The notes under the pieces are model-generated. The model was not told where the DNA came from and made no database searches. It saw nothing but the letters and a program-made list of their open reading frames with translations. The translations under genes were made by a program, and so were the position numbers. This document shows, in pieces, positions 1 through 14,747 of a stretch of DNA of 14,747 bases (the first letter of the stretch is position 1; every line of letters begins with the position of its first letter). The stretch lies in assembly GCF_018420025.1 (NCBI RefSeq), contig NZ_JAEDAM010000026.1:1-14747 (forward strand), in the 5' to 3' direction. The stretch comes from Candidatus Vampirococcus lugosii (GTDB taxonomy: Bacteria > Patescibacteriota > Gracilibacteria > Absconditabacterales > Absconditicoccaceae).

Positions 1-445
1 TATCATATTCATCTATCAATATTACTACTTGTTTTCCTGTTTTTTCATATATTTTCTCTGCTAAATATCATAAATCAAAATCATCTACAAAATCTTCTAA
101 ATTATATATTTTATCTTCTATATATATTTCTAATTTTTGTTTTATAAACTTTTCTATATCTTTAAATTCATTATAACTTGCAAAACTCATATACACTACT
201 GGATTTATTTCTTCAAAATTTCGTTTATCATAAATATATGTATTTTTGAATAATTCTTTTTCTCACATATATAAATATTTTATCATTGATAATGTCAATG
301 ATTTCCCAAATCTTCTCGGTCTAGATAAAAAATAATATTTATTACTTATCAATAAATTATGTATTGTTTTAGTTTTATCTACATAGTAACTATTTCTTGT
401 TATTAATTCTCTAAAATCTTGTATTCATATCGCTATTTTTTTCAT
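1..445 (-). CDS. AAA-ATPase-like domain protein (PF09820 / DUF1703-type predicted ATPase). N-terminal 148 codons only; the C-terminus lies beyond the left edge.
   Basis: ATG at 445 on the minus strand. Table-25 translation: MKKIAIGIQDFRELITRNSYYVDKTKTIHNLLISNKYYFLSRPRRFGKSLTLSMIKYLYMGEKELFKNTYIYDKRNFEEINPVVYMSFASYNEF...GKQVVILIDEYD, open to the window edge. IGIQDF, YYVDKT, FLSRPRRFGKS and LIDEYD are hallmark blocks of this family. There are three in-frame TGA codons, one inside the conserved IGI block. Confidence 0.8.
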
Positions 446-481
446 TTCTCTATTTTTTTTTAACATTACTAAATCTCTTTC

Positions 482-509
482 ATTATAATTTTTTCTTTAC
501 CAAAATCAA
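482..509 (-). promoter_or_regulatory. Possible sigma70-type promoter for the AAA-ATPase-like gene
   Basis: Minus strand reads TTGATT (509-504), a 16-nt spacer, then TATAAT (487-482), about 37 nt upstream of the ATG at 445. Such hexamers arise easily by chance in DNA this AT-rich. Confidence 0.25.
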
Positions 510-519
510 TATTTTTTTC

Positions 520-531
520 CCGCCCGGGCGG
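520..531. repeat. Perfect 12-bp all-GC palindrome CCGCCCGGGCGG, 4 nt beyond the leader-distal CRISPR repeat
   Basis: Read directly: tttttttc-CCGCCCGGGCGG-ttcc, then the repeat. It is the only all-GC block in this AT-rich intergenic region (446-535). It contains CCCGGG and is preceded by T7 on the plus strand. Confidence 0.9.
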
Positions 532-535
532 TTCC

Positions 536-2761
536 ATCTACAAAAGTAGAAATATTATACGAATTATAAAGTAATGTTGATGATTGCTGGACTCAGTTAT
601 CTACAAAAGTAGAAATATTATACGAATTATAAAGTTATTAATATATAAAATAGCTATTAAATCTACAAAAGTAGAAATATTATACGAATTATAAAGAATA
701 TTTTTTTGCTTTATTGCTCAAAAAATCTACAAAAGTAGAAATATTATACGAATTATAAAGATGGATGATGTTATTGATTTATTTGAATCTACAAAAGTAG
801 AAATATTATACGAATTATAAAGTATATCACTTACAAAAATGATTCATAAGCTATCTACAAAAGTAGAAATATTATACGAATTATAAAGATGTATTGAATA
901 GAATATTAGAAGAGAGAATCTACAAAAGTAGAAATATTATACGAATTATAAAGTTAACTATTAATATATATGATATGAAAGATCTACAAAAGTAGAAATA
1001 TTATACGAATTATAAAGTCATTATGCAACATTAAGTCAAATACAAGATCTACAAAAGTAGAAATATTATACGAATTATAAAGAATGCTGAATATAATCGT
1101 GGCATAGAATCTACAAAAGTAGAAATATTATACGAATTATAAAGAAACTATTTGGATAAAATGGGGCGAAGACAATCTACAAAAGTAGAAATATTATACG
1201 AATTATAAAGTTATTGAAGCTATATATTACACAAAACAGAATCTACAAAAGTAGAAATATTATACGAATTATAAAGTATCAAGTGTGATTTCTCACCTAG
1301 CTTTGATCTACAAAAGTAGAAATATTATACGAATTATAAAGATATGATTCATCATAAAAATTTTTCTTATCTACAAAAGTAGAAATATTATACGAATTAT
1401 AAAGTTGTGAATTTATGTGAAGCCGAGTTAATATCTACAAAAGTAGAAATATTATACGAATTATAAAGCATAAATACACTATAGAGAATATTATTTATCT
1501 ACAAAAGTAGAAATATTATACGAATTATAAAGACTATATCAGATAGTATTGCAGAGTTAATCTACAAAAGTAGAAATATTATACGAATTATAAAGAAATA
1601 ATTAATGATTTAATCAACTTAAATCTACAAAAGTAGAAATATTATACGAATTATAAAGTAATCAAAAGCATCCTAGTAACAGAAATACATCTACAAAAGT
1701 AGAAATATTATACGAATTATAAAGATTGACTACATTGTTGGGACTTAAATGATCTACAAAAGTAGAAATATTATACGAATTATAAAGCTGTATTAGTTAA
1801 TTCAACATCTCAAACCATCTACAAAAGTAGAAATATTATACGAATTATAAAGCAGATGAACCCGCCCAGATACTGACCCAATATCTACAAAAGTAGAAAT
1901 ATTATACGAATTATAAAGAAGAAAAAATACAAGTTCTTACAGAAGAGCTTATCTACAAAAGTAGAAATATTATACGAATTATAAAGTATAAGGTTGATGA
2001 AAGCGTCGCCAAAATCTACAAAAGTAGAAATATTATACGAATTATAAAGAATACTCCAGATATAAGAAACTATTAATCTACAAAAGTAGAAATATTATAC
2101 GAATTATAAAGATGTATTAACTGTATTAAAACAAGCAAGATCTACAAAAGTAGAAATATTATACGAATTATAAAGTCCTGTCGCATCTTGAAAAGTATAA
2201 AAATCTACAAAAGTAGAAATATTATACGAATTATAAAGCTTGGGACTGACATTTTGCATATTATAATCTACAAAAGTAGAAATATTATACGAATTATAAA
2301 GTTATGTTAATATTGGTGATGAGACAACACATCTACAAAAGTAGAAATATTATACGAATTATAAAGTTTAGGCAATGTTGTTCAATCATTATAGTAATCT
2401 ACAAAAGTAGAAATATTATACGAATTATAAAGATATTATGATACAATATGTGAAATTTATTATTATCTACAAAAGTAGAAATATTATACGAATTATAAAG
2501 TCATAAAATAAGATAAATATGCTTGGTCAATCTACAAAAGTAGAAATATTATACGAATTATAAAGGTAACTCCAACTTTACAAGCTTTATGATATATCTA
2601 CAAAAGTAGAAATATTATACGAATTATAAAGAATTAAATTTAAAATGCCAAACTGGACAAATCTACAAAAGTAGAAATATTATACGAATTATAAAGTTTG
2701 AAAATTTGTTAGTCTTGAAACAATGATCTACAAAAGTAGAAATATTATACGAATTATAAAG
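536..2761 (-). CRISPR. Type V-A (Cas12a-type) CRISPR array with 35 identical 36-bp repeats and 34 unique spacers (26-32 bp)
   Basis: The plus-strand repeat is ATCTACAAAAGTAGAAATATTATACGAATTATAAAG. The minus strand reads CTTTATAATTCGTATAATATTTCTACTTTTGTAGAT, which has the canonical Cas12a 3' handle (TCTAC-TTTT-GTAGA stem-loop plus T). Repeat starts are 536, 599, 661, 725, 787, 853, 918, 982, 1047, 1109, 1175, 1241, 1306, 1369, 1433, 1497, 1560, 1623, 1689, 1752, 1817, 1883, 1951, 2014, 2076, 2140, 2203, 2266, 2331, 2397, 2465, 2530, 2596, 2661 and 2726. The handle orientation and the adjacent cas2 both indicate minus-strand transcription, with the leader on the right (2762 onward). Confidence 0.98.
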
Positions 2762-2785
2762 ACCGATTTTGGCTTGTTTACTAGA

Positions 2786-2825
2786 GTTTCGGGAGCATAC
2801 AGATTTTTATCCGAGCTTCCGAAAC
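2786..2825 (+). other. GC-rich 11-bp stem / 18-nt loop hairpin inside the repeat-proximal leader
   Basis: GTTTCGGGAGC (2786-2796) pairs with GCTTCCGAAAC (2815-2825). As plus-strand RNA this gives 10 Watson-Crick pairs plus one G-U. As minus-strand RNA that position becomes an A-C mismatch. No U-tract follows on either strand. Confidence 0.5.
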
Positions 2826-3013
2826 CCAGTTGGACCGCCAATCCATTTTTATAAAGACTATAGGTTTGCAATTTTTTATATTTTGCATATTATTCCATAT
2901 AATCACACTTTACAATCCACATCGTTATTTCTATCTTTGTTTTTTTCTAATTCGTATTATTATATTTCATATAATATCTTTTAATGATCTTCTTATATAA
3001 TTCGTATTTATTC

Positions 3014-3041
3014 ATTATAATAATTTATTCTTATTTTGCAA
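3014..3041 (-). promoter_or_regulatory. Near-consensus sigma70-type promoter in the leader (candidate pre-crRNA promoter)
   Basis: Minus strand reads TTGCAA (3041-3036), a 16-nt spacer, then TATAAT (3019-3014). The predicted start near 3007 is about 245 nt upstream of the first repeat. The AT-rich background lowers specificity. Confidence 0.4.
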
Positions 3042-3058
3042 ACTTTTTTAATATAAAT

Positions 3059-3337
3059 CTACATAAACAATAAATCACTTTCTTCATTTACTGCATATCA
3101 ATATCTAATTACTTTCTTTTTACATCATTCACACATACCAAATATAAGAATACTATCAGTATTCTGAAATGATTTTGCAAAAATTTTTTCTACTTCTACC
3201 AAAATTAAATCTAAAATTCTTTGACTATTTTTGATCTCAAAAACTGAATATTGCAATCTCCTACCATATTTTTTTAAAAATTTGGAAAATTTTGTTCTCA
3301 CTTTATCATTACTTATATCATAAGACACTATCAACAT
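3059..3337 (-). CDS. cas2: CRISPR-associated endoribonuclease Cas2 (92 aa under table 25)
   Basis: MLIVSYDISNDKVRTKFSKFLKKYGRRLQYSVFEIKNSQRILDLILVEVEKIFAKSFQNTDSILIFGMCEGCKKKVIRYGYAVNEESDLLFM*. It has the N-terminal (V)SYDIS Asp motif and the LQYSVFE block typical of Cas2. The track ORF (3125-3337) stops at a TGA; reading it as Gly extends the protein to a normal Cas2 length, ending at TAG 3059-3061. Confidence 0.88.
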
Positions 3338-3348
3338 TTTACTTTAAT

Positions 3349-4305
3349 TTAAATACTAAAAAAATCTAATTCTTCCAAATCATCTTTTACAAATGCTCTA
3401 TAATAACTTTTACAAAACTTAAAAATTCATTCTTTATTTTCCAATATCGGTTCCAATAATAATTTTACATAATAATTTCTATTTTTCCAAGGAAGCCAGT
3501 ATTCTCCTTTTCCAAATTTAAAATCTTTTTCATTTATTTGATTCAAATTATTCATTTTTACAATTTGTTTATCTACAATACACCTAAAAGGTTCTACTAA
3601 ATCACAAACCAAAGATTTTCTTTGAAAAAACATTTGATGATAAAATCATTTATAAATATCAAATCAATAAAGATTTAAATTTGATTCTATAAAATTATAC
3701 AAAAAAGTATACCCTATATCCATAAGTAAATTTGTAGGATCAACTTTAGTCCTAGGCATTCTTTTGTACCAATTCAAATTTTTAAAATATATTTCAAAAA
3801 ATATTTTGGAAATATTTCATTCATATCATCTCAAAGAATCTTGATTTTCTGTTTTATTAAGATTTTTAATCAAAATTTTAATTTTATTTATTCATTCTTT
3901 TATTTTTTCATCTTTATTTCTAATATTTTTCAATAAAGAAAGTTGATTTTCTGCTTTATTATTTACTATTTTTTGTGAAAGCATAAGTTCTTGATCAAAA
4001 TTATATTGCTTTTGTCTTAACAAAAAATTTCATTCTAATTGATTTCATATCAAAAATTTAGGAGCAAGATTATGATTTAAGAAATAAACACTAATCCCAA
4101 ATTCTAATAATTTATTTATTAATTTAGTAGTAATAGTACAATCTCATATTACAAATAAATAAAAAATTTTGTAACAAGATGCTTGATTTACTAATTTTTC
4201 ATCTTGATAAATTGCGATATTATCATTTTTGAGTTTTAAGTTCTTAAATTCATCACTAGTAATAACAACTATTTGTTTTTCTTCAAAATCTTTATAAGAA
4301 AGCAT
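3349..4305 (-). CDS. cas1: CRISPR-associated integrase Cas1 (318 aa under table 25)
   Basis: MLSYKDFEEKQIVVITSDEF...FVIGDCTITTKLINKLLEFGISVYFLNHNLAPKFLIGN...LRGYEGNISKIFFEIYF...DPTNLLMDIGYTFLYNFIESNLNLYGFDIYKGFYHQMFFQRKSLVCDLVEPFRCIVDKQIV... The Cas1 catalytic blocks are present (GxEGN Glu, FYHQ His, DLVEPFR acidic). The track fragment 3427-3633 is in frame with the ATG at 4305. Several in-frame TGA fall at Gly-typical positions (VIGD, GYEGN, LYGFD). Confidence 0.93.
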
Positions 4306-4330
4306 TTTTGAGTTAATTATGAGTTAAAAA

Positions 4331-4879
4331 TTATTTGTAATAATCACACAATTCATTGTATATACATTTTTCACATTTTTTAAAATTTTGATTGAATTTA
4401 GAATTCAAATTAAAGTTTTGAAAATCTTTTATTAATTTTTCAAAATCTTGAATTTCTTGTTCTCAAGGAATTTTAATCTCATAATTTTTATTGTCTTGCA
4501 AAGAATGTATTTTTATTTTATTTATTTCATATCACATTTCTATCATACAAAAATATTGAGCATATACTTGCCAGATATAACCTTGATAAATTTTGACAAC
4601 TTTACTTTTTCTTTCTATTAAAGTTTTGTTAACAAAATCAAAAAGGTCTATTTTCCCAGTTAGTAGGTATTTATTTGAAAAAACAGAAATTCATTGTAAT
4701 ATATTTTTGGAAGTGCTATATTTTGCCTTATCTATATTTTCGTGATTGTGTTTACCTAGAGTTTGAGCTTTTTGATGATAATTTTTGGTATTGTATTTGG
4801 CATATAGTTCATGAAAATAAATAGATCTTGGGCAAAAGATAAAGTCGTTAAGTGTAGAAATTTTTATATAGTTTTGCAT
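4331..4879 (-). CDS. cas4: Cas4 RecB-like (PD-D/ExK) nuclease with 4-Cys Fe-S cluster motif (182 aa under table 25)
   Basis: MQNYIKISTLNDFIFCPRSIYFHELY...NILQGISVFSNKYLLTGKIDLFDFVNKTLIERKSKVVKIYQGYIWQVYAQYFCMIEMGYEINKI...KKCEKCIYNELCDYYK*. It has the N-terminal CPR Cys, GKID, IERK (ExK), QVYAQY (QxxxY) and a C-terminal CxxCxxxxxC. The track ORF 4691-4879 is its N-terminal piece, cut at a TGA. Confidence 0.9.
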
Positions 4880-4891
4880 TTTTATTTTTGG

Positions 4892-7800
4892 TTATGAATT
4901 AATTTGTTTTTTAATATATTCCATTCATTTTTTAGCTATATTGTAAGTAGCAAGATCATCTCAAGAGTTGATGAAATCAAATCAATGTCTTTTATTTTTC
5001 ATATGATAATTACAAGTATTATTTTCTGTTTTTTTCGCTTTTTTTAAGTTATTTCAATAATCAATTCAATTATTTTCTTTGTAATGATGCATTGAATTTT
5101 CAAATTTTGGTCATTTTCAATGTCAAAATAATTTTTCATTACAAACAGGACAAGCACTTGAAGTATTATATTTATTTATATATCAAATAATTCATAATTG
5201 ATCTAATTTTTTATCACTTTGAAAAGAAAAAACTTGTTTATAATTTGGAGGGACTTTTCATAGTGAAGAAAATTTTTGTAATAATTTTTCTTCTATTCTA
5301 CTTCATAAAGTTGTATTATTTTTTTCAAAATCATTTTGTTTTTTGGATAATTCAAAATCTTCAAAAAATATCATTCAAGGATATAATTCTTGCAAATATA
5401 TTATTATTCAAACCATATTAGCACAAATTGCATTTCTTAAATTATTTATTTTTAAAATAGAAATATTATTTTCATTTTCATCAAATTTATTTTTATTTAA
5501 ATATTCTTGTAATTCTTCTATAATCTCTTCCTTTGAACAAATAACATTTTCTTTATAATAATATAAAAATTCTTTTTTTTCTATACAATTTATAGTTATA
5601 TTATAATCATCATCCAAAATTTTATAATCTTTAATTTTTTTGGCATATACTAGATCATAAATTTTTCTTTTTGCTGAAGCTATTTTTAAATTTAAATATG
5701 TTGATAAATCTCAATTTAAATAGATTCTTCCATTTATAAATTTTGCTTTAGTTAAATCTATACATGAAACTTCTTTTTCATCATAAAAATCTGGATGTGT
5801 ATCAAAAGTATAATATGATAAATTTTTATAAATTGGAGTTCATTTTTCATTTGTAGCTTTTAATCATTTTTCATTTAGTTCATAAACTTTAATTTTTACT
5901 CATTTATTATTTTCTTTTGAAAAATCAAAAATTCATAAACTTACAAGTTCATTTTCTCATCTATCAAGTCAATAAAAATATTTAAAAGAATTTTCTTTAT
6001 TAAAATCTTTGTTATATTTATTATAAAAATTTAAAATTTCATCTGTTTCTTTAAAATTTAAATCAATTGATTTATTAAAAGAATTTTGTGTAATACTTGT
6101 TGTTAAAATATATCTATCATATAATTTTCTATTAAATTTCAATCAAGAATATTTTTTTTCAAAATTTTTGTCTTTTTCTATAAAACTAATTTTTATTTCT
6201 GGATTTATACGAATAGGAAATTTTTCTTTTTCATTATCTTCAGTCCAAAAATTCCACCATACTTTAGTATAATTATTTGGTTTTTCTCTTTTGAATTCTT
6301 TTTTTGTTTCTAATTTCTTTATTTCTTCTTCATCATATTTTTTTAAATCATAATTGGTAATTTTATAAAGTTTTGCTTCAAAATTTTCTATAATTTCTTG
6401 TTTTGTTTTATCTGATATAATAATTTTTTCTCTTTTATAACAAACTTTTTTTAATTCTTCTTCAAATTTTTCTAAATTTTCAAAATCTTTTTTTATAAAA
6501 TCATCAAATCAATCAAAATATTTTATAGAAATTTGTTTTTTTGTTGATTCAAGATTTAATACAGTTTTATAAAAATCTATAAGCAATTTTTCATCATTTT
6601 CTCAATTTTGTTTTTTGAATTCAAATTTATCTTTTAATTTTCATTTATTAAAAAAAATTTTATATTTATATTTACATATATTTTTATTTAAATTTTTTCT
6701 AAATGAATCGTCTACTTCTTTTCTAAATGAATTATATAAATCTTTTCTAAATGAATTATCTACTTCTTTTAATTTTCAATGTATATTTTCAACTTCTTTT
6801 CAAAAACAAAGTTTATCCAAAGCTCTTAAAGTAAATGATTCAAATTTATATAAAATCCATTCTCAATTATTTTCATTTTGTAAATTATCTATAAAATATT
6901 TTGATTGATTTAAATTTGTTTTGTATTTAGAAATCTCTTTTTTTGTATCTCTTGGAATAGTAAGTAAATATTTATTATTTTTATTTTCAAGAATTAAAGC
7001 CCAACTATTTGTTTTTTCAGCTTCAATTTTTTCTTTTTCAATTGATTTTATAAGTGCTTTTATTTTACCATATTCCGTTGCAATTTTTTTGTATTCATTA
7101 CAAAAGTTTTTAAATTTATAAAATTTAAATTTTCATTTTCTATTTCATTCAAAAAAATATTGTCATCTTTCTTTTTTTAATTCTGTTATTTTTTCAAAAA
7201 AATTTTCTTTTTCTATTTCTCAAAATTTTTCTCAAAATTCATTATTATATTTTTCTAAATTATATTTTATTTCTTCATTTTTTTGCTCTTTATTTTTTGC
7301 TTTTTTAATATTTAAAATATCTGATTTTGCTGTTGATAAAATTAAAATAGCCTTTGTTAAATCTAAAATATTTTTATATTGATCTTTATCAAAAATATCA
7401 TTATATAATGAAATATTTAAATCAATATTTTCTCATTTTGCTTTTGCTTCTAAATATTTTAAAAAATTTGATTTTTGTTCTGTTTTATATTCTTTCATTA
7501 ATTCATATGCTCTTTTTATTTCTAAATCTCAAATATCACTTGTAATATATTTACAAAATCAAGAATTTTTTATATTATATATATTAAATATGTTTTTTAT
7601 TTTTCTCTCTTTTTTATTAAAATAAGTAAATTCATTTAATTTTTTATTATTTTCTTTTTCTTTTTCTAATATATTTTTGTCATAATTTTTGGGTTTTTTG
7701 TTTACGGTAAAATAATTAAAACTTGCTTTTTCAATTACTTGTCATGAATTTTTTGGCAAAAGATGTTTTTCAATATTTATAATTAATTTTTCTGTTTTTT

Positions 7801-8368
7801 TAATTTTTTCTTTTATATCATTAATTTTTTTTGATATTTCTGCTTCTTCTATATTTATATTATTAAATAATTCTTTTAAAAAATTAAAATTTGTTATTTT
7901 TGAAATTTGATAAAAAAAATAATTCAAATCTGAATTTCTGGCTTTATCTTCTTGATTTCTAAATCATAAATTTTTAATTTTTCCTAAAAAAAAATTATTA
8001 TCATTTTCAAAACTTTTAAATCTATCTAATAGATAATCTAATTTTTTACTTTCTCAAATTTCAATTTGATTATTTCATTTTTTAAGAAATATAATATTTT
8101 TATCATAAAATTCTCTTTTTGTATAATTTTTTAAAAAACTAAATTTTATTTTTAATTTTTTATTTAATTTTTCTTTATTAAAATTAAAAACTATTTCTGG
8201 AAAAATTGAAAGTATTTTTTCATAAATTTCAACAAATTTTTTTAAATTTTCATCTAAATTTCATTCATATTTTGGTTTAATTAATTCTTCATCAAAATAA
8301 GGCTTTAACTCAAACCTAACTGTTTTATTTACCTCATACAAATTTTGTAAATTTTTTATATTTGTCAT
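4892..8368 (-). CDS. cas12a2: Second type V effector: a divergent Cas12a-derived nuclease of 1158 aa with a Cas12a2-like architecture
   Basis: It is continuous under table 25 (3477 nt), and track fragments 7742-7927 and 5408-5617 are in frame. The N-terminus MTNIKNLQNLYEVNKTVRFELKP parallels the Cas12a NLYxxSKTLRFELKP. Other Cas12a-like blocks are SWALILENKNNKYLLTIPRD, LYKITNYDL and NRKLYDRYILTTSIT. RuvC-I is YFYGLDRGENELV (D802), RuvC-II is GMIFFEDFE (E1003) and RuvC-III is SGDDLATYNIAKKG (D1137). The RuvC-I to RuvC-II distance is 201 aa, against 85 aa in the adjacent Cas12a. The RuvC-II to RuvC-III distance is 134 aa, against 239 aa. That shorter region holds only ACPVCNEKLFGHGKG...NTCNYHMKN (CxxC...CxxH). 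The family call (Cas12) is strong; the Cas12a2 assignment rests on architecture only. Confidence 0.8.
6695..6766 (-). repeat. In-frame 3 x 24-nt tandem repeat inside the second effector gene
   Basis: The plus-strand units are TTTTCTAAATGAATCGTCTACTTC, TTTTCTAAATGAATTATATAAATC and TTTTCTAAATGAATTATCTACTTC (6695-6718, 6719-6742, 6743-6766). They encode EVDNSFRK-DLYNSFRK-EVDDSFRK (residues ~535-558). Confidence 0.9.
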
Positions 8369-8393
8369 AATAATATTTTAATTAATTAAAAAT

Positions 8394-11300
8394 TTAATCT
8401 TGTACAAACTTATCCCAATCATCATCAGAAATATATAAATCAGGTTTTTCAATATTATCATCAATATTATTCAAAATCATAATTCATTTCCTAGCAATAT
8501 TATATGCCCCATTTGCATCAGCATTAAAATTTTTTCACTGTAATCAATCTTGACTATGATAATCACAAGATGGACATATAATATAATCTATATCATTTTT
8601 GCTATCTGAATTTCTCAACTGCAAAAGCAAATTGAAATAAAAAGTCAAAGATTTATAAAATTTTGCATCTTTATCAAATATTTGTTTATTTATATTTCCA
8701 TACAAATCTATATTTTCATTTTTGAATAAATTATTTAATCAATCATTAATATTAATTTCTTCAACTTCCATTTTTTTTGTATTAAATTTTAATCTATTAT
8801 TTAAACTATTGATATTAAATTTAGTTTTATTTGTATTTTGCTTTTTCTTTTTGTCTTGTATAATTTGGTAATCAAAAATAAATTTATTTCAATCAAAACT
8901 AATATCTACATTTTCAAAAAATTTTTTTTGTTTTTCTTTTGTAGCAGAATTTGAAATATAAACATTTTTTCTAAATCAACAAACTGGACAAGTAGTAGAA
9001 GTATAATTTGCTCTAGTATAAAACATTATTCAAGATTGTTTATATTTTGCTATATCTTGATAATCGTTAACTTTTGGCACTAATTGCCAAGCTTTAAGAT
9101 AAGAACCAATTTCATCAAGTTTTTTATTTTTATCAGTTAGATAATTTAATTTTTTTGCCAAAGCTAATTCTAGTTTTTGATAAACTTGTTTTTCAATTTT
9201 TTGTCTTCATCTTTTGAATCACATATTTAAATCTTCAAAAACAATAATAGCATTATATTTTATAATTAAATCAGCTAATTTATTTACTACTTGAGAAATA
9301 TATCAATTTTTCAATTCTTTAATATTTTCTATTTCTCACCAAGATATTCTTGCATCTTTTCTTGATTTTTCTATAGTTTCCAATTTTTGTAAATAATTAA
9401 TTTTATTTACTATATTCAAAGTATCTACTTCATAGATCTTTCAATTTCTATCAATTACAGAATAATATGCCAAATGTTTTTCTCATCTATCTATTCAAAT
9501 AATTTTAATATCTTTATTTTTATATAGATATTCATTTATCATTTGATTAAAATAATATTTATCTCATTTATTTGCATTTAATGTAATAGAAATATGAAAA
9601 AGTATTTTATCTTGAGAATATCTTTTATGTTGTATTATCTCTTTTCAAGATTTATCAAGTTTTTTATTTAAATCATCAGTTTTATCTCTGAAAAAAACTT
9701 CTGCTCATCAACTTAATTTTATTACCAAATTTTCCAAATTTTGAGGATCAAACAAAAGTTTGAAATATTTGGTATGAATATTTTCTTTACTTCAAGATTT
9801 TTTAAATTTTGAAAAATCTTTATTATATATTTGAAAAAGATATAGTTCTCAAGATTGTATTTTAAAATCAATAAAACTTGAATCAATTTTTGAGAAATTA
9901 AGAGAATACATTTTTTCTTCAATATCTTGATAAAATGTAGCTAAATCATTATAATCTTTTGATTCAATACTAGATAAATCATATTTATCAGAGTAAAGAA
10001 ACAATAATCATTTTTTGTAATAATTAATAAGTTTTTTTAATTTTGTAGGGTCAAACTTTTCTCATTGTTCTTTACTTGCTTGAAATATATCAAATTCTTT
10101 TTTAATATCAGCAATTTCTTGATTATATCAAAAATTTTCAATATATTTTGATAAATATTTATTTAGTTCATTTCAAGTAAGAGAATTTAATTTTTTTTGT
10201 AATGGAAAAAGTAATCTTGGTAATTGTCTATAAACATTATTCAGTTGTTTATAATTCATTTTTTCATAAAAATCTCATCAAGTATATTCATAATTTTTAA
10301 ATAAATTATTATTTTTCAAAATTCATAAATAATAATTTCAATCTTTTTTTAGAATTACTCAAAGTCTTTCTTTTTCTTTATCTTTATCCCAACCAGTAAG
10401 AAATTGAGAATTATCAAAATTTAATTTAAATTTATCAGTTTTTATTTTCTTTTTGGTCAAATAATTTCTTATCAAATTGTAATCTTTCCATATTTCATAA
10501 TCTGTATAATAATCATTTAATTCATTATAAAAATTATTATCAGTTTCTTTATCTTCTACTTTTTTTCTATTTTTTTCTAATACAAAATATTTCATCATAC
10601 TATAAACTGACAAAACTGAATCAAAATAATTTTTGATAATTAATATATTATCTTTATTTTTTTCAAAATTTGAAAGAATAGTATTTAAAGATTGTTCATA
10701 TTTAATTAATTCATCAATATTTTTATTTAGTTCATAGTTAAATATATTTAGAAAATTTTCATAAATAGTTTTATTTTCAAAAATTATATTTTTATTTATA
10801 TAAATATGTTTAAATACATCTTCAAGTTTTTGGTATGGAATATTTTCAAGAATATTTTTTAGTTCTGCAAAATTTACAAAATCAGCAATTTCTCATTTAC
10901 CAAAAAATCATCTAATATAATCCCATCCAGAAAAATATTTACTTGAAATTGTATTAATTGCTTGTTTAGTAATATATATTTTATCTAATTCATATTTTTT
11001 ATTTTCTACAACAAAAGAATTTATCAAATTTTTAGCTTGATTAACTTTTTGTTTATTTTTTGAGATACTAATTTTTATACTTTCTATAAGTTCATTATCA
11101 TCTTGTATATCTTCTATAAAATTTTGTTTTAAATTTTCCGAAAGAATTTGTTTATAAAGTAATTTAAATTTTGGGAATTTTATATCTTTTTTATTAGATT
11201 GAATTTGTTTTTGTTTAAATAGATTTATTTTTTCATTTATTCATTGTATTTTTTCTCAATTGTCTAATGAATAACCTCATAAGACTTTATTATAATTATC

Positions 11301-12020
11301 AATTCAATCTTGCAAAAGACAATTATTATAAAAATCTAATTCAAAAATAGCTTTTTCATCTTGTGATAATTTATTTTTTATAAAATCTGGAAAATTATTT
11401 TTAAAATTTTGGAAATCTTGAATATTTTTAATAAAAGTGATTAAATTTTCATCAATAGCTCTCGTGGCAACTGCTCCTGCTTTGCCATCTTCAGCATAAA
11501 AATTTTTTCTAGATTCATTAAAATTTGCAAAATAAGTAAAAAATCTATCAAATTTAGCAAATAAATCTTTTTGTTCTGGATAAAATTCTCACATAAGTTT
11601 TAAAATTTCTTTTTCATTCAAAACTGAAATTCATCATTTTTTAAGAAAAGAATATTTCTGTTTCCACTTATTTCATTGAGATTCAAAAAACTTTACAAGT
11701 TCTTTTCTTAAATTTTTGGATATTTTTTCAAATTCTTTTTGTAATTTTTTATTTTTTTTATTTTCTGGAGATTTATTTAATTCAATGTAAGAATTATAAA
11801 AATCTTCTAGTTGATTTAGATAAATATTTTGTAAAGCTTGTTTTACAAATTTACGATGTAGATCATCAAAATAATCTTTTATTTTTGTATAATTTACTTG
11901 TACTTGTCTATCTTTTTGGATAATTCAATCTTTTTTTAGATTATCTAATGTATTTGAAATAGGTTTTAGTTCAAATCTCAAAGTTTTTGATATTTCATAA
12001 AGATTAGTAAAATTTTCCAT
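8394..12020 (-). CDS. cas12a: Cas12a (Cpf1) type V-A effector nuclease, 1208 aa under table 25
   Basis: MENFTNLYEISKTLRFELKPISNTLDNLKKDGIIQKD...FANFNESRKNFYAEDGKAGAVATRAIDENL...NNCLLQDGIDNYNKVLGGYS...FLTGWDKDKEKERLGVILKKDGNYYLGIL...[35 protein letters not shown]...LSGGAEVFFRDK...HKRYSQDKILFHISITLNANK...[23 protein letters not shown] (RuvC-I D844)...[57 protein letters not shown] (RuvC-II E929)...QSGIMFYTRANYTSTTCPVCGF...YIICPSCDYHS...NFNADANGAYNIARKGIMIL (RuvC-III D1168). By my hand count about 40 in-frame TGA codons are present, and they repeatedly fall on invariant Gly positions. Track fragment 10359-10613 is in frame. Confidence 0.95.
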
Positions 12021-12083
12021 ATTTATTATTTAAAAAATTAAAATATTATATGTAAGAAATAGTAGAGTTGTTTACAGTTTTTT

Positions 12084-12344
12084 TTATTTTCAGTGATAAA
12101 ACTCATCTATAATTTCATATGGTGTTTTATTATCAATTCATTTATGAAGTTTGACACAATTATATCGATTTACAAACCTTTTTAAAGACTTTTTTCTATT
12201 TTCTCTTGAAATAAATGTTTCTTTACTATGTCGCATATCCATTAATGTTCTTATTACTCTTTCAGCTTTACCGTTTGTTTGTGGTCTTTTTACTTTTGTG
12301 TATTTTTTCTTTGTTCATGCTTCAAGACAATATTTCAATTGATG
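12084..12344 (-). pseudogene. C-terminal fragment of an rve (DDE integrase-core, IS481/IS3-like) transposase
   Basis: The minus-strand frame reads ...HQLKYCLEAGTKKKYTKVKRPQTNGKAERVIRTLMDMRHSKETFISRENRKKSLKRFVNRYNCVKLHKGIDNKTPYEIIDEFYHGK*, with stop TAA at 12084-12086. RPQTNGKxER...YNxxxxHxGIxxKTPxE is the characteristic end of the rve integrase core. The N-terminal catalytic part is absent, and the fragment abuts the oppositely oriented IS4-type fragment at ~12332-12344. Confidence 0.75.
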
Positions 12345-12921
12345 ATAATAATTTATATAAAGCAATAGATTATCTTGAAGATAATCAAAATGATATAGAA
12401 AATAAATTATTCAAAAAAAGAAAAGATGCTAATTGTAAATTATATTTATATGATATTACGAGTACATATTTTGAATAAAAAGCTGTTGAAATGGCAAAAT
12501 ATTGATATAGTAGAGATAAAAGAAATGATAGATTGCAAGTAAATATATGATTAGTAACAGATACTAATTGATATCCTATAAGTATAGAAATATTGGAATG
12601 AAATATAAATGATAAATCTACACTACAATCAAAAGTAAATGAATTAAAAGAGTTAAATGACATATTTTTATGTGTTTTATTAGTTATTATTTACTTCAAG
12701 ATTTTAGATTAAAAGTTAAAGATTTATTACAAGAATATATATTATTAACTGAATTAAAAAATGTAAGTAAAGTTTACTTTAAAATAGATAATATACATAT
12801 AAATAAAGTAGAACAAATAAATGAGCTTCAAGAAAAAATATTTAAATTATTTAAAATAAAAATAGATTTGTGTAGTACACAAATCTATTTTTATTTTCTT
12901 CCAAATCCTTGTCTAAATTAA
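12332..12921 (+). pseudogene. IS4/IS1634-family (DDE_Tnp_1-type) transposase pseudogene with N-terminal truncation, an in-frame TAA and an internal deletion
   Basis: Frame 1 reads ISIDDNNLYKAIDYLEDNQNDIENKLFKKRKDANCKLYLYDITSTYFE*KAVEMAKYGYSRDKRNDRLQVNIGLVTDTNGYPISIEILEGNINDKSTLQSKVNELKEL. This matches the LYDxTSTYFEG...GYSRDxRxDxxQ...G.P...E...GN..D block around the first catalytic Asp. At ~12660 the frame changes to (M)CFISYYLLQDFRLKVKDLLQEYILLTELKNVSKVYFKIDNIHINKVEQINELQEKIFKLFKI, the family C-terminal tail. The segments that should carry the second Asp and the Glu are missing. Confidence 0.75.
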
Positions 12922-12956
12922 GGATTTAGAAATTTTGTTCTACAAAGATGAGGTTA
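12781..12956 (+). mobile_element. Right-end segment of IS4/IS1634-type element, copy A (near-identical to the inverted copy at 14569-14747)
   Basis: Positions 12781-12956 match the reverse complement of 14569-14747 almost base for base. Differences cluster around the palindrome, plus one substitution in the second hairpin (aaattaagg vs aaatcaagg). Weaker similarity continues outward, for example ATAAATTTCCACTAATT at ~13012-13028 against its complement at ~14484-14500. Confidence 0.85.
12853..12897 (+). terminator. Long AT-rich palindrome (22-bp arms, 1-nt centre) at the end of the IS transposase reading frame; candidate intrinsic terminator
   Basis: AAAATAAAAATAGATTTGTGTA-g-TACACAAATCTATTTTTATTTT. 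It is followed by a second 8-bp hairpin, AAATCCTT-gtctaaatt-AAGGATTT (~12903-12927). The left arm is diverged in copy B. Confidence 0.45.
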
Positions 12957-13109
12957 AAGCATTTAAACTTAATTTTAATGTCTCCTTTATACATATTTTT
13001 TCATAAATTTCCACTAATTCCACCTTTTTTATTTATTGTTTTTATTAGTTCTTAATTAACTTTTCAAAGTTTTTAATATTTCATATTACTGCAGAAAATT
13101 AGAAAAATT

Positions 13110-13137
13110 TTGATTTTTTTTGTAAAAACAATACAAT
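13110..13137 (+). promoter_or_regulatory. Possible sigma70-type promoter upstream of the small ORF / Kazal-like gene
   Basis: TTGATT (13110-13115), a 16-nt spacer, then TACAAT (13132-13137). The AT-rich background makes chance occurrence likely. Confidence 0.25.
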
Positions 13138-13202
13138 TAGTTTGTCCGACTTTATTTAAAGTTTGGATATGACTGTAAACACTCCATCAAAAGGTGAAAG
13201 AT

Positions 13203-13289
13203 ATGTCTTCTCAAAACTATGTTTTTAATGATGAGTTGGTTCTAGATGAGCCCTGGGATAGTTTTGACTGGGAAGAGACTTGTTTCTAA
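13203..13289 (+). CDS. Hypothetical 28-aa acidic peptide (MSSQNYVFNDELVLDEPWDSFDWEETCF)
   Basis: The ATG at 13203 is preceded by AAGGTGA, 5 nt upstream. No comparable Shine-Dalgarno precedes the cas gene or Kazal-like gene starts I examined. It lies in a locally GC-richer block (~13140-13290). Stop TAA is at 13287-13289, followed by a weak hairpin and a T-run. It could equally be a gene remnant. Confidence 0.3.
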   Translation: MSSQNYVFNDELVLDEPWDSFDWEETCF

Positions 13290-13418
13290 AAATCTCAAAA
13301 AAAGACTTGATTTTTTTAAAAAAAAGTATAATATTAATATACACTATAAATTTATAAAATCTTTATGTAGAACAATTTATATTTTATAGTATATTTATAT
13401 ATATAAACTTCAATTTTT

Positions 13419-13898
13419 ATGAAAAAAATATTATTATTATTTTTACTTTTAAGTTGTATTCCAATTTCTTTAACTAGTGCTAATAATACTTTATTTGAAG
13501 ATAAACCTACTAATGGTGGTGATATTGATTGTAATGAAGATTATGAGCCTGTATGTTGATATGATTCAAAAACTTATAGAAATGAGTGTAAAGCAAAAAA
13601 TGAATGAGTTAAAGTTTATTATAAATGAGAATGCTTATCTGTAAAAATGGAGAGTAAGATACAAGAATATGTTTTTGGTAAATTAGATCGAATGTTTAGT
13701 CGTCTTGTTTGAACTGATGAAGAAAAAATTATGCGTGTTTGAAATATAATAGATAATTTTGAAAATAGATTAGAAAAATTAGATGTTTCATCTAGAAGGT
13801 ATAGTATGATTTGATATATTTTAAGATCTTTAAATGATTATATAGATAAAATTTTAGAAGAAGATTTAAATATAGATTGATATTATTTGGATGAGTAA
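13419..13898 (+). CDS. Secreted (possibly lipoprotein) Kazal-like domain protein with a helical C-terminal region, 159 aa under table 25
   Basis: MKKILLLFLLLSCIPISLTSANNTLFEDKPTNGGDIDCNEDYEPVCGYDSKTYRNECKAKNEGVKVYYKGECLSVKMESKIQEYVFGKLDRMFSRLVGTDEEKIMRVGNIIDNFENRLEKLDVSSRRYSMIGYILRSLNDYIDKILEEDLNIDGYYLDE*. It has a hydrophobic signal peptide with an LLSC lipobox-like site. The bacterial Kazal-like pattern C-x8-PVCG-xD-x-TY-xNxC-xA-xxxGV-x-V-xxx-G-x-C is present, and all three pattern glycines are encoded by TGA. Confidence 0.75.
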
Positions 13899-13935
13899 AT
13901 GATTTTTGGGTATAATATTAGTTTTTTGTTTTTAA

Positions 13936-13986
13936 AATTAAGAAATAAAGTATACTAAAACTACTTTATTTCTTAATTTTTTTTTG
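13936..13986 (+). terminator. Rho-independent terminator of the Kazal-like gene
   Basis: A perfect 17-bp stem, AATTAAGAAATAAAGTA (13936-13952) with TACTTTATTTCTTAATT (13962-13978), and a 9-nt loop. It is followed by a run of T residues, 38 nt after the stop codon. Confidence 0.6.
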
Positions 13987-14052
13987 AAAAATTAAAAAAA
14001 TATATATAATTGGAGTATTTAAATTTATCTTTGTAAGCAAAAAATAGCTAAT

Positions 14053-14133
14053 TTCAAATCTCAAAGTTTTTGATATTTCATAAAGATTAGTAAAATTTTC
14101 CGTATTTTTTAATAAAAAATTAAAATATTATAT
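14053..14133 (-). pseudogene. Duplicated remnant of the cas12a promoter-proximal region plus its first 17 codons (start codon mutated)
   Basis: Positions 14053-14133 align with 11970-12051. The match is exact over the 51 nt encoding MENFTNLYEISKTLRFE except that ATG becomes ACG (plus strand ccat to ccgt at 14100-14103). The ~30 nt upstream carry a few substitutions and one indel. Confidence 0.9.
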
Positions 14134-14153
14134 AAATAATATTACATATAAAC

Positions 14154-14195
14154 AAAAAAATCAATTTATTTTTATATTTGATAATAAATTGATTT
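14154..14195 (-). terminator. Candidate minus-strand intrinsic terminator upstream of the cas12a promoter remnant
   Basis: A 13-bp AT-rich stem (14158-14170 pairs with 14183-14195) and a 12-nt loop. It is followed on the minus strand by TTTTGTT (14157-14151). The stem is low in GC, so it is weak. Confidence 0.3.
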
Positions 14196-14568
14196 AGATA
14201 ATATATATAATATCAAAAAAATTGAAATAAAATTCTTAAATAAAATTTTTATATTAAGTCTTTTATAAATAGAATCATAAAAAAGAGCTTGTTATTTATC
14301 AAAAGACAAAAGGAAGATAATAATTAATAATTTTTGAAATTGATTTAATATTAAGAAAAGCTTTAGATAAATTTGTCACACTTGGTTAAATAGAATTCTG
14401 ATAAGTTGATATAAATATTTTGGTATAAAAATCTAAAAAGTTATGAGAATATAGTTAATAAAATAATTAAAAAAGAGTGAAATTAGTGGAAATTTATCAA
14501 AAAAATATTTTTTTATCAGAAATTAGTAGATATTTTTTAAAAAATAAAAAAGTATTAAAAGTATTGTA

Positions 14569-14747
14569 TAACCTCATCTTTGTAGAACAAAATTTCTAAA
14601 TCCTTGATTTAGACAAGGATTTGGAAGAAAATAAAAATAGATTTGTGTACTACACAAATTTTATAATTTTATTTTAAATAATTTAAATATTTTTTCTTGA
14701 AGCTCATTTATTTGTTCTACTTTATTTATATGTATATTATCTATTTT
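14569..14747 (-). mobile_element. IS4/IS1634-type element copy B (right end, inverted relative to copy A); continues beyond the window
   Basis: This is the reverse complement of 12781-12956. Diverged similarity extends inward to ~14478, so the true IS terminus probably lies between ~14478 and 14569. Confidence 0.85.
14661..14747 (-). CDS. IS4/IS1634-family transposase, C-terminal 28 codons (the gene continues off the right edge)
   Basis: The minus frame reads KIDNIHINKVEQINELQEKIFKLFKIKL* with TAA at 14661-14663. It is identical to the copy A tail, but here a proper stop is retained. This copy may therefore be intact. Confidence 0.7.
   Translation of the reverse strand, partial: KIDNIHINKVEQINELQEKIFKLFKIKL

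Follow-up and report, generated by a model that had tools for sequence, protein, structure and literature searches.

Organisation of the locus

The stretch analysed here, a contig of Candidatus Vampirococcus lugosii of 14,747 nt that is called the window throughout, carries a CRISPR-Cas locus whose genes contain many in-frame TGA codons. It is almost certainly a type V CRISPR-Cas contig of this organism in which UGA is read as glycine, as in translation table 25. From cas12a onwards the minus strand carries a second effector that groups with the Cas12a3 clade, then cas4, cas1 and cas2, and finally an array of 35 repeats. By position these features are:

8394-12020, minus strand: cas12a, 1208 amino acids, 40 TGA, stop TAA; TIGR04330, 789.7 bits
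4892-8368, minus strand: second effector, 1158 amino acids, 41 TGA; by sequence a member of the Cas12a3 clade, published as Vamp_48_93
4331-4879, minus strand: cas4, 182 amino acids, 3 TGA; Pfam PF01930, 35.7 bits
3349-4305, minus strand: cas1, 318 amino acids, 9 TGA, stop TAA; Pfam PF01867
3059-3337, minus strand: cas2, 92 amino acids, 2 TGA, stop TAG; Pfam PF09827, 63.4 bits
536-2761, minus strand: CRISPR array, 35 identical 36-nt repeats and 34 spacers of 26-32 nt

The initial annotation, made from the letters of this DNA, had treated the effector region as one gene; the region in fact holds two, of 1208 and 1158 amino acids. Its description of a complete type V-A system is correct, as Cas12a, Cas4, Cas1, Cas2 and the array are all recognised: Cas12a passes the curated model and contains RuvC, it is accompanied by cas4-cas1-cas2, and the adjoining array has a stem-loop repeat. 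The Pfam domains REC1 and RuvC_1 were both found in Cas12a, and its best match to a Cas12a in the PDB has E = 4e-172.

The minus-strand sequence of the repeat is CTTTATAATTCGTATAATATTTCTACTTTTGTAGAT. Its 3' end, UCUAC-UUUU-GUAGA-U, folds into a Cas12a-type handle with a 5-bp stem and a 4-nt loop. No exact match to the two leader-proximal spacers was found in IMG/VR, which agrees with the published report that gives no phage matches for V. lugosii spacers (PMC8080830). Rfam at gathering thresholds gave no match in the window; an anti-repeat (trans-activating CRISPR RNA) was not searched for. The mean G+C content (GC) of the spacers is 27%, against 19% for the contig.

TGA is a sense codon in the window

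The window has a GC of 19.4%. Under table 11 its longest stop-to-stop open reading frame (ORF) is 177 amino acids, and the ORFs of at least 100 amino acids add up to only 824 amino acids; when TGA is read through, the longest ORF becomes 1211 amino acids and the total 4247. Freeing TAG instead of TGA produced no such gain. It is clear that the long genes are interrupted by in-frame TGA and become uninterrupted on read-through, as had been proposed, and the re-calling of genes under tables 25, 4 and 11 that was suggested as a check gave only fragments under table 11. Tables 4 and 25 gave identical ORF lengths, so the amino acid inserted at TGA had to be established by separate tests, made in four ways (see below).

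In-frame TGA codons number 109 across eight coherent genes, namely the two effectors, cas1, cas2 and cas4 listed above together with three flanking genes:

1-466, minus strand: AAA-ATPase-like gene (PF09820), of which the contig start leaves only the 5' part; 3 TGA, 1 CGA
12084-12428, minus strand: rve_3 integrase-core fragment (PF13683), a mobile-element remnant; 4 TGA, 2 CGA
13419-13898, plus strand: secreted Kazal-type inhibitor-like protein, 159 amino acids; 7 TGA, 1 CGA

All seven genes whose ends fall inside the window terminate in TAA or TAG. Frame 0 of cas12a and of the second effector contains 40 and 41 TGA codons respectively and not one internal TAA or TAG, whereas the other two coding-strand frames of these large genes contain 56-108 TAA each. 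This frame-specific absence of TAA and TAG beside 40 and 41 TGA codons cannot be chance. The exact figure of 40 for cas12a also matches the earlier hand count of about 40.

Summed over the eight genes there are 109 TGA, 27 GGN and 16 TGG codons; if TGA is glycine it thus makes up about 80% of the glycine codons in the window, in line with the proposal that it is the dominant glycine codon and that GGN codons are few. Glycine content is 4.0% when TGA is counted and an implausible 0.8% when it is not. Tryptophan content is 0.5%, and table 4 would raise it to 3.7%. The restoration of ORFs on TGA read-through was also seen in 12 of 12 related loci. Several of the metagenome-assembled genomes from which the related loci come are labelled 'Candidatus Peribacteria' in NCBI, yet TGA is clearly a sense codon in them.

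Glycine and tryptophan at the TGA codons

Homologue columns, codon exchange between orthologues, hidden Markov model (HMM) scores and solved structures were used to decide which amino acid TGA encodes, and all four bear out the proposal of glycine. For the first, Cas12a with its TGA positions masked as X was aligned to 90 homologues of no more than 42% identity. In the TGA columns Gly makes up 44% of the residues (background 4.3%) and Trp 2.5% (background 1.5%); in the TGG columns Trp makes up 59%. The alignment has 18 strongly conserved Gly columns, 11 of which the window encodes by TGA; it does so at none of the 14 columns where Trp is conserved. Six of the distant homologues have 3-15 Trp each at conserved-Gly columns and are probably recoded genes that were mistranslated with table 4; much of the 2.5% Trp at TGA columns would be accounted for by these six sequences. 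The TGA columns of the second effector, compared with its own homologues, hold 36% Gly over a background of 3.4%.

The comparison of codons between orthologous genes in related loci (at least 45% identity) is independent of the translation table. Opposite TGA of the window (n = 484) stand 321 TGA, 75 GGN and no TGG codons; opposite its TGG (n = 93), 74 TGG and no TGA; and opposite its GGN (n = 143), 63 TGA and 46 GGN. TGA therefore exchanges with GGN in both directions and with TGG in neither, and the claim that TGG still encodes tryptophan (in GWDKDKE and KAWQL) is supported both by this and by the TGG columns of Cas12a.

Aligning the TGA columns to family HMMs, a further check proposed at the outset, likewise showed a preference for Gly over Trp, with a gain in five of the six families tested. 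The Cas12a model TIGR04330 (cutoff 300) scored 789.7 bits when Gly was inserted at TGA and 699.1 when Trp was, a gain of 90.6. The gain was 25.6 bits for Cas1 PF01867 (189.3 vs 163.7), 8.3 for PF09820 (126.6 vs 118.3), 4.6 for rve_3 PF13683 (48.7 vs 44.1) and 10.6 for Kazal_2 (27.4 vs 16.8), which falls below its cutoff when Trp is inserted. With Gly the Kazal-type protein also scores 30.2 bits against Kazal_1.

Solved structures of Cas1 and of Kazal domains from organisms with the standard code gave the same answer: Cas1 TGA codons 54, 160, 163, 214 and 221 align to Gly in the former, and the TGA positions of the Kazal motifs PVCG and KGEC align to Gly in the latter.

TGA had also been said to fall on invariant glycines of unrelated families. 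Every motif quoted has TGA at its Gly: IIGIDRGE, NGYIS, NMGFKRGRQK, QSGIMFY and NIARKGIM in Cas12a, GYEGN in Cas1, IGIQDF in the ATPase and HKGIDNKTP in the rve fragment. The signature glycines of the Kazal-like domain (PVCG, EGV, KGEC) are all TGA-encoded as described. The part of this claim that did not stand concerns NMGFKRGRQK, whose glycines (Cas12a 934 and 938) are not invariant; distant homologues have mostly R and I at these positions, with G in the minority.

Lineage and decoding

Three proteins of the window, in their glycine translations, have identical counterparts among the NCBI proteins of V. lugosii: Cas12a is MBS8121957.1 (named Cas12a/Cpf1), the second effector is MBS8121966.1 (with all 41 TGA as Gly) and the Kazal-type protein is MBS8121961.1 (named Kazal-type inhibitor). 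The V. lugosii protein named type V CRISPR-associated endonuclease Cas1, MBS8121963.1 (318 amino acids), is linked to the cas1 of the window by its membership of one 90% cluster with entry P0121 of a large protein collection; P0121, a Cas1 of this organism that was assembled from read archives, is the table-4 (Trp) translation of the cas1 of the window. V. lugosii belongs to the Candidatus Absconditibacteriota. The exact identities and this phylum confirm the placement of the DNA in a lineage that uses table 25, the SR1/Gracilibacteria code, for which PMC8080830 and PMC8629427 cite Rinke et al. 2013.

In the window UGA behaves as a sense codon for glycine that is under purifying selection, and it is the preferred one. 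Strong A+T pressure, at 19% GC, has made it the main glycine codon, with only UAA and UAG left to terminate; the preference for TGA fits such pressure because TGA replaces the G+C-rich GGN. The mechanism accepted for the clade combines a tRNA-Gly whose anticodon is UCA with the loss of release factor 2 (PMC8629427). Decoding of UGA by such a tRNA, and the absence of release factor 2, would apply here on the strength of that literature rather than of the window. The V. lugosii genome is reported to have 38 tRNA genes, which are not itemised in the text of the paper, and release factor 2 goes unmentioned in the main text (PMC8080830).

Some observations weigh against the reading of the window as a table-25 locus with UGA as glycine. 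A search for tRNA genes came up empty for the window as well as for the 12 related loci. The Cas2 score is neutral (63.4 bits with Gly, 64.7 with Trp). About a third of the TGA columns in Cas12a and the second effector are variable or gapped and so uninformative either way, and CGA may depart from table 25, as is discussed below.

The right end of the contig

The rve_3 fragment had no meaningful PDB match. ORFs at 12215-12712 on the plus strand resemble pieces of an IS4/IS1634-type transposase by eye; Pfam gave nothing significant for them, and they were left unnamed. Upstream of cas12a lies a partial duplicate of its own start region:

14050-14127, minus strand: cas12a start-region duplicate, a remnant and not a gene; 78 nt, 92% identical to 11970-12042

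It comprises the upstream region and first 17 codons with the ATG changed to ACG, is situated 2 kb upstream of cas12a, and is what a rearrangement, or the loss of another effector copy, has left behind. The DNA that separates it from the original contains the Kazal-type gene, the rve_3 fragment and further transposase-like pieces of ORFs. In addition, the segment 12781-12956 (about 176 nt) has an inverted copy, 99% identical, at 14569-14747, with which the contig ends. This terminal inverted duplication may mark a mobile-element boundary; alternatively, as the V. lugosii genome was whole-genome amplified (PMC8080830), it may be a chimera of amplification or assembly. The right contig end as a whole looks like mobile-element debris.

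Alternative readings of the code

The first alternative extends the glycine assignment rather than replacing it: the code would be table 25 with CGA, and perhaps CGG, read as Trp and not Arg. We consider the chances of this to be about even. A reassignment of CGA and CGG to Trp has been predicted for Absconditabacteria (Shulgina and Eddy 2021, eLife 10:e71402, PMC8629427), and codon usage in the window is in keeping with that prediction, with 4 CGA and no CGG codons beside 75 AGA. The four CGA codons are:

ATPase, codon 82
rve fragment, codons 66 and 88
Kazal-type gene, codon 91

The three CGA sites in Pfam domains gain +2.8, +4.3 and +1.7 bits when Arg is changed to Trp: PF09820 rises from 126.6 to 129.4 with codon 82 as Trp, and rve_3 from 48.7 to 53.0 and 50.4 with each of its CGA codons so changed. 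Ten AGA-encoded Arg sites of these two domains, changed to Trp as controls, gave between -5.7 and +0.3 bits, nine of the ten being negative. All three CGA values thus lie above all ten controls, which has a probability of 1 in 286 by rank. Furthermore, in the related loci CGG stands opposite TGG in 5 of 8 aligned codon pairs.

Against this, only three codons are testable, two of them inside a degraded transposase fragment. The closest relative, locus L001, is mixed: a PAS-domain CGA clearly prefers Arg (-0.6 to -5.3 bits), while of its other CGA sites one is neutral (+0.2) and one favours Trp (+2.2 bits). Across the related loci CGA is opposite mainly Arg codons (35 of 78), a result driven by the higher-GC locus L008. 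A metagenome scan found no close relatives of the ATPase fragment in which CGA and TGG might exchange. If CGA is indeed Trp, the deposited table-25 proteins have Arg where the cell inserts Trp.

That TGA encodes Trp, as in table 4 and hence as in Mycoplasma and several insect endosymbionts, is very improbable. ORF lengths are the same under both tables and, in addition, the large protein collection does show W at the TGA columns for the majority of close relatives. However, these W residues stem from gene calling: the proteins concerned are 3-5% Trp and less than 0.5% Gly (0.2-0.4%), and the NCBI versions carry G. Most of the related entries (P0121, P0001-P0030, P0242-P0252, P0261 and P0262) are translated with table 4 and have Trp wherever TGA occurs, with Gly found only in NCBI entries; table 4 is thus a frequent default of automated pipelines when they handle this lineage. 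Table 4 is refuted by the codon-level and HMM tests, in that none of the 484 aligned codons shows an exchange between TGA and TGG, conserved Trp columns are never TGA, and insertion of Trp lowers the HMM scores by 4.6 to 90.6 bits.

The remaining reading, which takes TGA for a genuine stop and the locus for a heavily pseudogenised or mis-assembled one, could appeal to the whole-genome-amplified origin of the contig and to the mobile-element debris and inverted duplication at its right end, but it is hardly credible and is refuted by frame specificity (eight frames interrupted by 109 TGA and never by TAA or TAG) and by the conservation of TGA positions in orthologues from independent samples (321/484), the same behaviour being shown by 12 of 12 related loci.

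The second effector

With UGA read as glycine, the 1158-residue protein encoded between cas12a and cas4 gave no match in Pfam or NCBIfam, and its only PDB matches by phmmer were the Cas12a3 chains 21we (E = 9.5e-71) and 9hlx (E = 2e-55). The nucleases of the Cas12a3 clade are triggered by RNA and cleave tRNAs at their CCA tails, and their sister clade, Cas12a4, has broader RNA cleavage (Nature 649:1312, 2026). The supplementary table of that paper lists its Absconditabacterales members under Cas12a4, from which the second effector was suspected to be a Cas12a4. The two clades were therefore compared using sequence stretches of both from the supplementary FASTA of the same paper. Alignments to ca1, Rb2 and Gr2Cas12a3 extend over 697-792 amino acids, with E from 2e-28 to 3e-46, whereas those to ca40, ca82, Ap and ca70Cas12a4 cover only 20-92 amino acids; and in a crude neighbour-joining tree built after masking of Trp and Gly, the protein lies apart from the Cas12a4 anchor. 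Since it aligns with the Cas12a3 members, assignment to Cas12a4 was ruled out, and by sequence the second effector belongs to the Cas12a3 clade. Neither V. lugosii nor the sequence of the second effector was found in the supplementary files searched for that paper.

The RuvC catalytic triad is kept as D802, E1003 and D1138; D802 aligns to D712 of Ba1Cas12a3, E1003 lies within FFEDFE and D1138 within SGDDLATYNIAKKG. A CxxC...C..H zinc ribbon is kept as well. The tRNA-loading domain, residues 855-960 in Ba1Cas12a3, is for the most part absent: the second effector has no counterpart to about 886-965 of Ba1 or about 900-978 of BaCas12a3, so that some 80-110 amino acids are missing. RuvC-I and RuvC-II are separated by 202 amino acids here and by 274-330 in the Ba/Ba1-like subgroup, the family median being 232. 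It is possible that the long insert is specific to the Ba-like subgroup. RNA-triggered cleavage of the tRNA 3' CCA tail has been demonstrated for Ba1, Sm3 and ca23Cas12a3 only (Nature 649:1312, 2026).

Within the second effector, at 6695-6775 of the window, three tandem 24-nt units encode an 8-residue motif three times over (NSFRKDLY/NSFRKEVD/DSFRKNLN) in a variable region of the protein.

Second effectors also lie beside cas12a in relatives:

L001, 13178-16621: Cas12a4-like
L009, about 8104-11631: ca82Cas12a4
L010, about 2133-5915: Cas12a3-like

The second ORF of locus L009 is 97.5% identical to ca82Cas12a4 with TGA masked and 100% identical with TGA as Gly. An identification of P0261 as ca82Cas12a4 was wrong, ca82Cas12a4 being this second ORF.

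Taken together, a fuller picture can be put forward tentatively, and we think it somewhat doubtful as a whole: UGA as glycine would be combined with CGA as Trp, and a short-insert Cas12a3 would share its array with a DNA-cutting Cas12a while possibly differing in substrate preference from the tRNA-tail cutters.

Prior knowledge and consequences

The UGA=Gly code, the organism (a predatory one), the locus and its annotation are already public, and no novelty is therefore claimed for the recoding itself. The genes of V. lugosii were called by Prodigal with table 25, and UGA=Gly is stated (Moreira et al. 2021, Nat Commun 12:2454, PMC8080830). The same paper describes a class 2 type V system with Cas1, Cas2, Cas4, Cpf1 and 34 spacers of 26-32 bp, and puts forward Vamp_48_93, a protein of 1158 amino acids that lies between Cpf1 and Cas1 and has a PolC motif, as a candidate for a new effector. 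Cas12a of SR1 and Gracilibacteria is also already in the literature and in NCBI. The added value is modest: the candidate effector of 2021 can be assigned, on present comparisons, to the Cas12a3 clade, and there is a small local hint of CGA recoding. Both the Cas12a3 placement and the possible reading of CGA as Trp were partly anticipated by published work.

There is nonetheless a practical caution. Table 11 shatters the genes of this lineage, and many large public protein sets contain it in table-4 translation, with Trp standing where about 80% of the glycines belong; for Cas12a this costs 90 bits of HMM score, and proteins expressed or modelled from such sequences would be corrupted.

Comparison with known systems

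For UGA the window is no different from table 25: UGA is Gly, UGG is Trp, only UAA and UAG are stops, GC is low and the host is one of the Absconditabacteria. CGA may deviate towards Trp, which would fall outside that table. Table 4, in which UGA is Trp, is the code of the Mycoplasmatales, the Entomoplasmatales and some endosymbionts; the window resembles it in having UGA as a sense codon in a very A+T-rich genome, and in the resulting ORF lengths, but differs in that Gly and not Trp is the amino acid at its TGA codons. The code predicted by Shulgina and Eddy (2021) is matched in so far as CGA is rare, CGG is absent and the three testable sites favour Trp; the sample in the window is tiny, however, and the evidence in a close relative is mixed.

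The published V. lugosii locus (PMC8080830) is the same DNA with the same cas genes, and the number and sizes of the spacers are equal. The difference is that Vamp_48_93 was a candidate new effector in the 2021 paper and is now placeable in the Cas12a3 clade. With the Cas12a3 nucleases already described (Ba1Cas12a3 and BaCas12a3; Nature 649:1312 and NAR, 2026) the second effector shares sequence matches along its length, the RuvC triad and the zinc ribbon, as well as a position beside cas4-cas1-cas2 and an array with Cas12a-type repeats. It differs from the Ba/Ba1-like members in that the V. lugosii insert is shorter and the gene stands in tandem with a canonical cas12a.

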